From: a virus
Lineage: Duplodnaviria > Heunggongvirae > Uroviricota > Caudoviricetes
Strand: one strand, 5' to 3'
IMG/VR virus record: IMGVR_UViG_2526164664_000023
Length of the DNA: 25,327 nucleotides
Positions within the stretch are counted from its first letter, which is position 1. Each line of letters begins with the position of its first letter. Position numbers: made by a program. Below are positions 21,001-24,000 of this stretch, piece by piece.

Positions 21001-24000
21001 GTCTCTCGATGAACATCAGAAAGCATGGTTGCTTTGGTGTTACAGCGAAAGCGTTCGATGGGGGCATCAGGTCACCATAACGCAATGGGCATGGAGCGAG
21101 TTTAAAGATTTGTTAAGTAACAGAAAAATTGCAGGTAAGACACTGGATCGCCTGAAGACGTTAATCTGGCTGGCTGCACAGGATGTGAAGAGCGAACTTG
21201 CAGGGCGTGAGGCCTATGAATACCAGACACTGGCATCATTGGTGGGAGTGACAACAAAAAACTGGTCCGAGACATTTACTGAACGCTGGGTTGCAATGAA
21301 GCACATTTTTCTACAGCTTGATAGTGATGCTTTATTGCTTGTGACGAGAACACGTTCAAAACAAAAGGCAGCATTTTTACAGCAAAATATTGCAAAACTG
21401 GATTAAAAGCCATATACTTCATGCAAATTTGGTATGTTGTAAAAAATGTATAAACCCGCTGCCGAGTGGGTTTTTTTATGCCCTGAGTTGTACTTGTACG
21501 GTAAACATGCTGGCTGCTATGTAATAGAGTTTTTTTAGCCTGTAACCTCTTGACGGCATTGAATTGCTTTTGTTATGAGTTGTAAGCCAATGTTATCATC
21601 TTGTATTGGGGTGGTTATGAAGGATGGTGCGCTGCTCAGGAGTTCTTCACTTTTTATTGCCTACATGGGATGCCTTGGATGGGGGAGTGCTTATTTCTAT
21701 GGATGGGGTACTTCTTTTTACTACGGCTTCCCATGGTGGATTGTAGGTGCAGGTGTTGATGATGTTGCCAGAAGTTTATTTTTTGCAGTTATCGTCATTG
21801 CTATATTTCTTATCGGTTGGGGTATTGGTGTTGTATTCTTTTTCGCAGTGAAAAGAAAACATTCTATGCAAGTAGCTTAAATGTATTTCGCCTTTATTTT
21901 GCTGTGGAATTATTGTTTGTGCCGGCAATTATTGAGTTTTCTATATTGAGACAGAAGATTCAGGTACCTCTTTTGCTACTGTCAGCAGCGATTGCGCTGG
22001 CGGTTACAATTTCGATAAGATCTTATGGGCGATTTTTATCGGTATCATGCTTCTATGATAAGCCATTTATAAAAAAACATTTTTTTGAGATTGTGATGAT
22101 TGCTTTTGTGGCATATTTTTGGCTTTTTTCATTTCTGACAGGATATTACAAACCACAGTTTAAGAAAGAATATGAAATGATTAATTATAATGATGGTTGG
22201 TATTATGTTCTTGCTCGTTATGATAATTGTCTGGTTTTGTCTACTTCTTTCAATGCAGGTAGTAAAAGGTTTGTCATTTATCAATCAGCACAAGATAAGA
22301 ATCTTCAGGTTGATATTGTAAGGACCAGAATTTAATTGGCTGCATAAATAATATTTTAAGTTGCAAGTTGGCTATTCGTAGGAATAGAACCTTAGGCATG
22401 CTGAATGCGTTTTCTGAACATTGTTTTATAAACTGTGTCTGCTTGCTGTTGTGATCCTGCTTTTAGTGATGGTGATGATGGATTTCACCAGCAGGATAAT
22501 GTTGGTACTGACTGATGGCGCTCTGGTCTGCGGCATTGTGGTATTGCTGTGGCCGATGATGAAAGAACAGAATGAATAATTCTTGACTTTTTTGTTTACT
22601 GTTTATTAAAAAATCAACCGCATGGTGAATCCTCCTTGGAGGGGCTAAATGATCGAGTTTTAAGGGCACGTAGCGAGTTCTGTTTGATCATTGCAGAACT
22701 TAGCGGGAGGCGGCCATGCGTACATCACTAGTGTTATTCCTTTTATCATTTTCCTTGTGAGTTCTGGCTGCGCATTGCGCAGCCTTTTTTTATGACCTGC
22801 CACTGGCAGATGGTCATCCTGTGATTTGATTCCGCTTCCGGCTTTTTAACTCTGTTCCTCTACACGGGAGAAATTCGATGTCGATTAAACATTACGATGT
22901 TGTCAGGGCGGCGTCGCCGTCAGACCTTGCGGAAAAGCTGACACACAAACTGAAAGAGGGCTGGCAGCCATACGGCGGACCGGTTGCCATTACGCCGTAC
23001 ACACTGATGCAGGCGGTGGCTATTGAAGGAGAGCCACAGGTCGGCCCTTCATCTGAGCCGGATTGGTACTACGTCATCGTACTGGCCGGGCAATCCAATG
23101 CCATGGCTTACGGTGAAGGGCTTACGGTGAAGGGCTTCCGCTGCCGGATTCATACGATGCTCCGGATCCGCGCATTAAACAGCTGGCGCGCCGCAGTACA
23201 GTGACGCCGGCGGGGCTGCCTGCAGATATAACGATATTATTCCGGCTGACCACTGTCTGCATGATGTGCAGGATATGAGTACGCTGAATCATCCGAAGGC
23301 AGACCTGAGCAAAGGGCAGTACGGCTGTGTCGGCCAGGGGTTACATATTGCCAAAAAACTGCTCCCGTATATCCCGAATAACGCGGGGATCCTGCTGGTA
23401 CCATGCTGTCGTGGTGGTTCGGCATTCACCCAGGGCGCGGAGGGGACATTCAGTGCGGACACGGGGGCCAGCCAGGATTCGGCACGCTGGGGTGTGGGTA
23501 AACCGTTATATCAGGACCTGATTGCGCGCACTAAAGCTGCATTACAGAAGAACCCGAAAAGTGTGTTGCTGGCGGTGTGCTGGATGCAGGGAGAGTTTGA
23601 CATGAGCGCCGCCACCCACGCACAGCAACCTGCGCTGTTTACAGCCATGCTGACACAGTTTCGTGCTGACCTCTCCGTGTTTAACGCGCAGTGCCATGGT
23701 GGCAGTGCTGCAGATGTGCCGTGGATTTGTGGTGACACGACGTATTACTGGAAAAATACATACGCTACCCAGTACGACACCGTGTACGGCGGGTATAAAA
23801 ACAGGGAGAGTGAGGGCGTTTATTTGTGCCCTTCATGACAGACGGTAACGGTGTCAATACCGCCACTAACGCGCCGGCAGAAGATCCGGATATTCCGGCA
23901 TCAGGATATTACGGTGCGGCATCGAGAACGAATGGAAACCAGGTATCATCAAACCGCCCGACACATTTCAGTTCATGGGCGCGCAGGAGCATTATTCCGG

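Follow-up and report, generated by a model that had tools for sequence, protein, structure and literature searches.

The AT-rich slot between Q and nanS-p of a phage-434-like prophage: tfpB, a DUF3927 gene and the small RNA gene pasD2 as probable lysogen-expressed accessory units

The IMG/VR virus record IMGVR_UViG_2526164664_000023 (Caudoviricetes) is a stretch of 25,327 nucleotides, referred to here in its full length as the window, and is a phage-434-like, Q82-type lambdoid prophage of an O26:H11-like Escherichia coli. The whole of it corresponds to a prophage at ybhC that is essentially identical to one found in O26:H11-type strains. The region of interest is an AT-rich slot on the + strand (21481-22877) that is bounded on the left by the late antiterminator gene Q with the late promoter pR' and the terminator tR', and on the right by the sialate esterase gene nanS-p. 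Its GC content is 39.0%, as compared with 46.2% for the whole window, 46.1% for the Q gene and 55.8% for nanS-p. The + strand of the slot contains two overlapping open reading frames (ORFs) at 21575-21880 and 21817-22335, a 52-aa ORF at 22421-22579, and a G+C-rich hairpin followed by a T-run at 22766-22791. An earlier reading made from the sequence alone (the sequence-only reading) had described an AT-rich slot between a Q-like gene with its promoter and terminator and nanS-p, had placed it where Shiga toxin (Stx) phages carry stxAB, and had seen nothing Stx-like in it, all of which agrees with the present results. The gene order of phage 933W (Q, pR', tR', tRNAs, stx2A, stx2B, SASA esterase, holin) matches that of the window, and the slot is the position equivalent to the stx slot of Stx phages. 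Like stxAB of 933W, the contents of the slot lie between Q/pR'/tR' and nanS-p as accessory cargo that is dispensable for phage growth, but they are unrelated to stxAB in sequence, and scans of the encoded proteins against Pfam, NCBIfam and PHROG returned no toxin family and no similarity to the StxA ribosome-inactivating protein or to StxB.

The cargo had been read as something new, an impression that the comparison with other genomes dispels. Over its 1.5 kb the interval shares 99.7% identity with phage 434 (OL657226) and with ~300 complete E. coli genomes, and ~99.7% with prophage PP2 of enteropathogenic E. coli (EPEC) E2348/69; it occurs in 707 of 5,426 complete E. coli genomes (13%), often twice per genome. 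Phage 434, the O26 strain and EPEC E2348/69 all have a 744-nt gene (WP_001302581.1), followed by a 159-nt DUF3927 gene (WP_000499454.1) and then by the esterase. All three units of the cargo are already catalogued, as PF27470 TfpB, as Pfam DUF3927 and as the small RNA (sRNA) PasD2, known as EcOnc13 in enterohaemorrhagic E. coli (EHEC), and it can be stated with high confidence that the cargo amounts to these three units and that they are expressed in the lysogen. For the window itself the main value of this result is corrective: what seemed to be unexplored, broken cargo is a well-catalogued module of 434 and of EPEC/EHEC prophages, the assembly in which it was read is indel-prone, and one supposed ORF is a validated sRNA. 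The coordinates are collected in Table 1.

Table 1. Features of the slot and its borders, and sequence changes private to the window
Feature	Position	Strand	Details
tfpB-family gene (Pfam PF27470)	21617..22335	+	238 aa when read from Met 21617; annotated as 247 aa from 21590 in RefSeq and phage 434
Candidate tfpB promoter	21550..21579	+	TTGACG 21550-55, 18-nt spacer, TGT-TATGAG extended -10 21571-79; inferred
Private T insertions and TAA	21873..21880	+	split tfpB into ORFs 21575-21880 and 21817-22335
DUF3927 membrane protein gene ('TciB-like')	22421..22579	+	52 aa, two hydrophobic helices; WP_000499454.1 annotated at the same place
Candidate pasD promoter	22583..22612	+	TTGACT 22583-88, A/T-rich -10 ~22604-12, 8 nt upstream of published 5' end; inferred
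pasD2 sRNA gene	22620..22791	+	172 nt; seed UGUGAG 22756-61; terminator stem 22766-84, U-tract 22785-91
Q82-like late antiterminator gene	20717..21406	+	229 aa, 100% identity to phage 434 CPT_434_67 / WP_001097238.1; left border of slot
Late promoter pR'	21390-95 and 21413-18	+	TTGCAA 21390-95, 17-nt spacer, TATACT 21413-18; consensus scan
Terminator tR'	21452-21480	+	stem 21452-21473, then T-run; phage 434 has an annotated terminator at this position
nanS-p (SASA / DUF6645 sialate esterase)	22878..24740	+	ORFs 22878-23204, 23266-23838, 23826-24740; pseudogene here; right border of slot
lpxR (lipid A 3'-O-deacylase family)	19284..20243	-	AT-rich cargo to the left of Q; recurrent link to tfpB
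Private homopolymer deletions	3151, 9174, 9984, 13732, 14316, 20259, 20517, 21471, 22785, 23209, 23823, 24886		1 nt each

The largest of the three units is tfpB, whose likely true start is Met10 of the annotated product since most homologues are 236-238 aa long. Once two T's that are private to the window are removed, its product is identical to gp68 of phage 434 (CPT_434_68, UMO75332.1), which is the same protein as WP_001302581.1 and EPEC E2348C_0686 and has the same neighbours and slot; the ORF is intact there, whereas it is interrupted in the window. The phage 434, E. coli and EPEC entries are annotated merely as 'putative membrane protein' or 'hypothetical protein'. In a large protein collection the PF27470 (TfpB) tag is carried by a 100%-identical protein and by all 104 homologues, and family membership rests on this precomputed tag, the Pfam library that was scanned being one without the PF27470 model. 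The name 'protein tfpB' comes from one database entry of an allele of the type found in enterotoxigenic E. coli (ETEC). 'TfpB' as used in the literature denotes an unrelated type-IV-pilus ATPase or pilus class and not this family, and a literature search for 'PF27470' found no paper mentioning it.

The interruption of tfpB is due to two extra T's, at 21873 and 21877, that appear on alignment with phage 434 and NZ_CP027442.1. They turn CAAGAGCTAAAT into CAAGTAGCTTAAAT and thereby create an in-frame TAA at 21878-80. The suggestion that the two overlapping ORFs are one gene is confirmed by the single 744-nt ORF of the relatives, but the lesion is not the 1-nt indel at 21830-21850 that had been proposed, as the two insertions give a net change of +2. 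An 81-nt probe across the split site matched 1,209 copies in 682 complete E. coli genomes, each of them 79/81 identical, and the T insertions are therefore private to the window. The gene is an uninterrupted 744-nt ORF in phage 434, EPEC E2348/69 and ~678 complete E. coli genomes, and the uninterrupted ORF of ~238 aa that characterises PF27470 is lacking in the window record and intact in every other copy examined. Compared with the nearest complete genome, the window has twelve private 1-nt deletions over 25 kb, all of which fall in homopolymer runs. The deletion at 14316 splits replication gene O into ORFs 13820-14443 and 14269-14757, that at 13732 alters cII, and two others hit terminator U-tracts; a further private insertion is a single G at 22712. 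This pattern of deletions, which includes cII, gene O and the U-tracts, marks the assembly as indel-prone, and any frameshift in the window is therefore to be distrusted. The split of tfpB is thus probably an assembly error rather than a real mutation. The alternative is that it is genuine and that tfpB has been inactivated in a decaying prophage, leaving no protein function of the interval here apart from PasD. In its favour, the insertions at 21873 and 22712, two of the three private ones, are atypical for homopolymer miscalls, and the adjoining nanS-p is a genuine pseudogene: a 14-nt tandem duplication (23105-23118) that breaks it is common to the window and to the O26 genome NZ_CP027442.1, where the gene is annotated as 'frameshifted', and for this reason the lesion looks real. 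The prophage also bears IS600 and a TolA-like pseudogene. A genuine split is nevertheless improbable, given that the change is absent from the 1,209 other copies, that the twelve homopolymer deletions in the same record are the signature of an indel-prone assembly, and that a pair of insertions with a spacing of 4 nt would seldom be expected to arise naturally.

The second unit encodes a small protein of the DUF3927 family. It scores 53 bits against Pfam PF13064 (cut-off 25, E=3.4e-14) and matches phrog_1470, 'TciB-like', with E=2.5e-17, so that its likeness to phage P1 TciB and to DUF3927 lies above the family cut-off. For P1 TciB the phrase 'tellurite/colicin resistance or inhibition of cell division' is a label given in annotation, and a literature search on tciB traced it to the annotation of phage P1 and found no supporting experiment. 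The possible 36-aa single-helix peptide of the sequence-only reading turns out to be the C-terminal two-thirds of this two-helix protein, read from an internal Met. Among the contexts sampled, the DUF3927 gene accompanies TfpB in the 434-type arrangement only.

PasD2 is an sRNA that was published from EPEC E2348/69 as a 172-nt + strand gene at 741157-741328, between E2348C_0687 and the esterase, and that was found to be Hfq-dependent by northern blot of the identical sequence in EPEC (Pearl Mizrahi 2021). The window segment reproduces pasD2 base for base except for the private indels (+G at 22712, -T at 22785), and the phage 434 copy is 172/172 identical. Both the published pasD northern probe sequence and the UGUGAG seed are present, and the window copy has the same seed, terminator and synteny as PasD2/PasD1 of E2348/69 and EHEC EcOnc13. 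It lies downstream of Q and LpxR and directly upstream of the sialate esterase. Elsewhere, Q and LpxR occur within 10 kb of >98% of PasD genes, pasD is directly upstream of the esterase in phage NC_049952, and PasD sRNAs have been described as related to STnc100 (10.64898/2026.05.13.724894). NC_049952 matches the window at 97%. In Rfam, 22590-22795 matches STnc100 (RF02076) over the full length of the model with 41.4 bits (E=6e-7), below the gathering score of 47, and the error-free 434 copy gives the same 41.4 bits (E=4e-7). pasD2 therefore resembles STnc100 structurally and is related to that family without being one of its curated members. Its predicted fold lies well below shuffled controls (z=-3.1).

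The 14-aa mini-ORF with a strong terminator that the sequence-only reading had noted here survives in part: the terminator (22766-22791) is real and is that of pasD2, whereas the 14-codon ORF (22716-22760) lies inside the sRNA and is not a gene, because it ends inside the seed. Two annotations overlap pasD, namely gp70 of phage 434 (a 62-aa + strand 'putative membrane protein' at 4736-4924 of the compared 434 stretch) and a RefSeq minus-strand 'hypothetical protein' pseudogene (22660-22900). The former has no family support and the latter is unsupported; both were treated as annotation artefacts, and probably arise from the sRNA having been left unannotated. Sequencing of RNA-RNA chimeras by RIL-seq showed that the targets with which PasD2 pairs include the lpxR mRNA from its own island (E2348C_0684; site CUCACAAG), that the PhoP-dependent sRNA MgrR also pairs with lpxR mRNA, and that PasA pairs weakly with tfpB mRNA (57 chimeras, p=0.02) (PMC8550237). 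The pairings with the lpxR and tfpB mRNAs hint at regulation within the island.

Evidence for the expression of the cargo comes from EPEC E2348/69, whose prophage PP2 encodes proteins identical to it. The values are DESeq2 baseMean figures from RNA-seq of that strain in the 'activating' condition (PMC8550237 supplement). In PP2, tfpB (E2348C_0686) reaches 226, the DUF3927 gene 37 and pasD2 11,017, while lpxR stands at 2,936, Q at 69, the esterase at 102, the nin-region genes at 0.4-1.8 and holin, lysozyme and Rz at 1-3.5; the tfpB copy of prophage PP4 is at 147, compared with 6 for its Q-like upstream gene (PMC8550237). By these values tfpB is 3-25x above its upstream neighbour in EPEC lysogens. 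Since tfpB is high while the lysis genes are at 1-3.5, it is transcribed in the uninduced lysogen, past tR' and with the late operon off, and the cargo is not late-promoter-driven. The opposite had been claimed before, and that claim falls, since the genes are transcribed while the late operon is off and the promoter-like element of tfpB travels with the gene to non-phage contexts. Its companion claim, that the cargo is of the lysogenic-conversion type, gains support from tfpB and pasD2 levels far above those of the lysis genes. This also sets the slot apart from stxAB of 933W, as release of Stx needs late transcription and lysis, whereas the present cargo is expressed in the uninduced lysogen. 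The candidate tfpB promoter is kept in the 434-type, ETEC-plasmid and second-phage alleles in spite of unrelated flanks.

A distinct base composition, which is expected of a moron, is seen in tfpB, which has 36.0% GC in the window as against 46% for Q and 56% for nanS-p. With its candidate promoter, tfpB would work like the lambda-family morons lambda bor and lom and HK97 gp15: a gene of distinct composition that sits in a late region under a promoter of its own, is active in the repressed prophage and specifies a protein of the envelope. They differ in having no homology to TfpB, which is moreover also widespread outside phages.

TfpB is an aromatic-rich multi-pass membrane protein of about 240 aa, as had been read from the sequence, with 20% F+W+Y and four to five hydrophobic helices by hydropathy in its 238 or 247 aa. 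The family is tiny, comprising 72 representative clusters among 1.84 billion, and its members come only from animal-associated Proteobacteria: Escherichia, Shigella, Citrobacter, Salmonella, Klebsiella, Cronobacter, Enterobacter and Yersinia and, for the distant ones, Neisseria dumasiana and Avibacterium. In nine independent contexts the proportion of synonymous differences (pS) is 0.62-0.82, which is saturated, that of nonsynonymous differences (pN) is 0.14-0.41, and dN/dS is 0.10-0.24 where computable; the gene has 30-41% G+C in all nine. As pN is far below the saturated pS and dN/dS is low, tfpB is a real gene under purifying selection.

The family architecture, as seen in alignments and in AlphaFold2 (AF2) models, comprises an N-terminal aromatic/Gly helix (AYxGxLGWGSAYFYGWG..YYGFPWW), four further transmembrane helices and a C-terminal β domain. 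A first AF2 model built from 27 close homologues was poor, with a predicted local distance difference test (pLDDT) score of 59, and the addition of distant members from an exhaustive profile search raised this to 85, with a predicted TM score (pTM) of 0.76. The resulting model has helices at 12-45, 56-88, 98-120, 125-146 and 158-190 and a five-strand β domain at 193-244. Over 27 homologues loop 2-3 carries a charge of +2.0, loop 4-5 one of +2.4 and loop 1-2 one of -1.7, and no homologue has a Lys or Arg in loop 1-2. By the positive-inside rule TfpB is predicted to have its N-terminus inside, five spans and a periplasmic C-terminal domain. The most conserved part of the protein is the uncharged aromatic/Gly first helix together with the loop that follows it.

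Searches for relatives of TfpB were negative throughout. The repaired protein has no match in Pfam (in the library mentioned above), NCBIfam or PADLOC, and its PHROG matches (phrog_1521 and fragment families) are all of unknown function. Pfam scans of 28 diverse members gave scattered single hits only, the family profile found nothing below E 4.7 among PDB sequences, and the fold search gave no significant match among PDB or BFVD (predicted viral) structures. PADLOC-DB 2.0 returned 0 defence families at E<=1 for all three proteins searched. No homology to holin, endolysin, spanin or virion families emerged from the PHROG matches or the PDB and BFVD fold searches, and a clear resemblance to a phage structural or lysis protein, which would have told against the sequence-only reading, was thus looked for in PHROG, PDB and BFVD and not found. 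TfpB therefore stands as a small, strongly conserved, AT-rich orphan family of membrane proteins without detectable sequence or fold relatives and with no function assigned.

The genomic contexts of TfpB were surveyed as a sample from contig look-ups and not as a census. The 434-type prophages have the order LpxR(-), YlcG, Q, TfpB, DUF3927, PasD, esterase, where (-) denotes the minus strand, and a second lambdoid type has Q, methylase, TfpB, LpxR(-), PmrD(-), esterase. A Yersinia prophage has NinG, Q, TfpB. On chromosomes the order is LpxR(-), TfpB in Citrobacter rodentium and sseJ(-), TfpB in Salmonella, also in subspecies arizonae and diarizonae. ETEC plasmids carry eltBA(-), TfpB, an insertion sequence (IS), EAST1 and STb; Shigella pINV (106 plasmids) has TfpB among IS remnants; a Klebsiella island has TfpB with an STb-like gene; and in a small plasmid-like context TfpB is IS-flanked. 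Only 3 of 50,697 phage records encode TfpB. The protein thus keeps company with virulence cargo, namely the stx slot, the heat-labile enterotoxin (LT) and STb genes, Shigella pINV, sseJ and the regulon of Salmonella pathogenicity island 2 (SPI-2), LpxR and PmrD.

LpxR adjoins TfpB in three different gene orders, and the two diverge in parallel: comparison of the two phage types gives TfpB/LpxR identities of 68%/70%, and comparison with Citrobacter gives 66%/75%. This co-divergence, with PmrD in the same slot of one phage type, suggests a mobile set of lipid-A-related cargo. The ETEC gene (WP_001424997.1) is 59% identical and diverges from eltA, ~870 bp upstream of which it lies; EAST1 and STb are close by. 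The 'TfpB protein' of Shigella pINV belongs to the same family (56-59% identity for the two). The ETEC allele has the same TTGACG-N18-TGnTAT promoter-like element as the window, and its homology to the phage allele begins at window position 21546, 71 nt upstream of the start codon, with nothing further upstream. Because the two alleles share just the promoter-like element and the coding region, what moves is the gene together with its promoter. Q or tR' remnants, which would have pointed to a phage origin for the ETEC LT locus, were sought upstream of ETEC tfpB and not found. The ETEC and Shigella copies differ from that of the window in being plasmid-borne, IS-flanked and adjacent to toxin or type III secretion system genes, with no phage late region. 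The Shigella homologue (56-57% identity) is found on the large virulence plasmid (106 plasmids; S. dysenteriae pSLG231), near virA and the spa genes.

The Salmonella gene, which adjoins sseJ, is by gene order likely to be STM1630. It belongs to the same family (46-49% identity over the full length), is AT-rich and is transcribed from a promoter of its own, with expression in virulence-inducing conditions, but it is non-phage and has no LpxR, DUF3927 or PasD alongside. STM1630 is co-regulated with SPI-2, the pag genes and lpxO (PMC2639726) and is reported to be upregulated in macrophages (10.1101/689075). The chromosomal genes of Citrobacter and Salmonella have the same right neighbours (class III alcohol dehydrogenase, a trg-like chemoreceptor and a LysR regulator) and different left neighbours, LpxR in Citrobacter and sseJ in Salmonella; the common right neighbours suggest an old or recurrent insertion site.

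Overall, the best explanation, with a probability of roughly 0.55, is that tfpB, the DUF3927 gene and pasD2 form a cluster of accessory units (morons), each of the three being transcribed separately, and that TfpB acts on the envelope in the lysogen. It is proposed that tfpB would have a sigma-70 promoter to itself, of the extended -10 type, at 21550-79, and that the protein would be inserted into the inner membrane with its N-terminus inside and five helices, which would place a ~55-aa SH3-like β domain in the periplasm. The conserved, uncharged aromatic/Gly first helix and the acidic first loop would face the periplasmic side. From this position TfpB may act on the cell envelope to the benefit of the lysogen in its animal host, together with remodelling of lipid A and lipopolysaccharide (LPS) by LpxR and PmrD, and not in lysis or assembly. 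The link to the envelope and LPS is guilt by association and can be put forward only tentatively; it is favoured because of the linkage and co-divergence with LpxR (and PmrD), the SPI-2/pag-type regulation in Salmonella, the occurrence on virulence plasmids and the predicted periplasm-facing conserved surface. Several points weigh against this explanation. The candidate tfpB promoter was recognised by its match to the consensus, and its -10 (TATGAG) is imperfect; the proposed topology follows from the positive-inside rule, and the equivalence with STM1630 is drawn from gene order. LpxR linkage is seen in only 3 of ~9 independent contexts and could be mere accretion of AT-rich cargo at permissive sites. 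Moreover, deletion of STM1630 gave no intramacrophage replication phenotype (10.1101/689075), and hypermotility at screen level is the only phenotype reported for it (PMC4219756).

A more specific and rather speculative extension is that TfpB might be the inner-membrane partner of a mobile lipid-A/LPS module, which from the periplasmic face licenses, senses or counterbalances the 3'-O-deacylation of the LpxR type and the modifications linked to PmrD. If so, it would explain the co-divergence of TfpB and LpxR on two phage types and the Citrobacter chromosome, the presence of the Salmonella copy in a PhoP/SsrB-type virulence regulon and the pairing of PasD with lpxR mRNA, and TfpB would then represent a novel fold and also a novel type of envelope factor associated with virulence, common to EHEC/EPEC prophages, ETEC and Shigella plasmids, and Salmonella. 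A defined TfpB phenotype would add a lysogenic-conversion function to the classical lambdoid phages, and phage 434 and E2348/69 are material at hand in every phage laboratory.

The cargo can also be read in other ways, which share part of the same evidence. P22 SieA and HK97 gp15 are exclusion proteins that are small inner-membrane morons, and TfpB, being prophage-borne, lysogen-expressed and predicted to be a multi-pass inner-membrane protein, could by analogy, possibly with the DUF3927 protein, be a superinfection-exclusion, anti-phage or bacteriocin-immunity protein that blocks DNA injection or toxin translocation. The adjoining gene is in fact labelled 'TciB-like ... resistance to colicin', but this 'Tci' label was inherited from the P1 annotation, and no PADLOC model matches. 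An exclusion role is also weakened by the rarity of TfpB among phage records, by the copies that are fixed outside phages on the chromosome of Salmonella subspecies and C. rodentium and those on pINV and ETEC plasmids, and by the co-regulation of the Salmonella copy with SPI-2 virulence genes, and is on balance unlikely. A toxin-accessory factor for the export, assembly or regulation of enterotoxin, left over in the slot once its toxin genes had disappeared, would account for the divergent position upstream of eltAB near STb/EAST1 on ETEC plasmids, the STb-like neighbour in Klebsiella, the occupation of the stx slot in lambdoid prophages and the derivation of the family name from an ETEC-type allele. 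However, no toxin gene adjoins TfpB in the 434-type, Yersinia, Salmonella, Citrobacter or Shigella contexts, and the ETEC and Klebsiella copies are IS-bounded, with homology confined to promoter and gene, so that shared hot spots can explain the adjacency; such a role is therefore very unlikely. Least credible of all is that the genes are ordinary late-operon functions, such as a lysis regulator or a holin-like protein, made from pR' under Q control. Their position between pR'/tR' and the lysis cassette, in the same orientation, speaks for this, but they are transcribed while holin, lysozyme and Rz are silent, a complete cassette of holin, signal-arrest-release (SAR) endolysin and spanin is already present downstream in 434, the TfpB family occurs outside phages, and its PHROG families have no lysis or structural annotation.

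The flanks of the slot have features of their own. Transcription from pR' to tR' (21419-21480) should yield a short terminated transcript of ~55-60 nt, for which lambda 6S RNA and the StxS sRNA of Stx phages are analogues. The T-run of tR' is one T short in the window through the private deletion at 21471, and an Rfam search with the 434 copy of the pR'-tR' region gave a weak STnc240 match only (28 bits, cut-off 55). To the left, an N-terminal stub of a lambda-type Q ('antitermination protein, incomplete') at ~19069-19140, just ahead of lpxR, marks the recombination joint at which the LpxR-YlcG-Q82 module took the place of a lambda-like Q. The lpxR-ylcG spacer (20244-20579) is the most AT-rich stretch here (29% G+C) and contains an ORF at 20367-20552 for a very hydrophobic product of 61 aa (MRFLLSFNVTVFLLSVFAWCFMFFIIFILL...) that is unannotated in all records compared. 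To the right, nanS-p contains a mosaic patch of ~300 bp (23297-23592) in which substitutions relative to phage 434 are clustered. Finally, IS600 is located at 3582-4845 in the window and at 7419-8682 in the near-identical O26 prophage stretch, and as the positions differ the two strains differ by an IS move.

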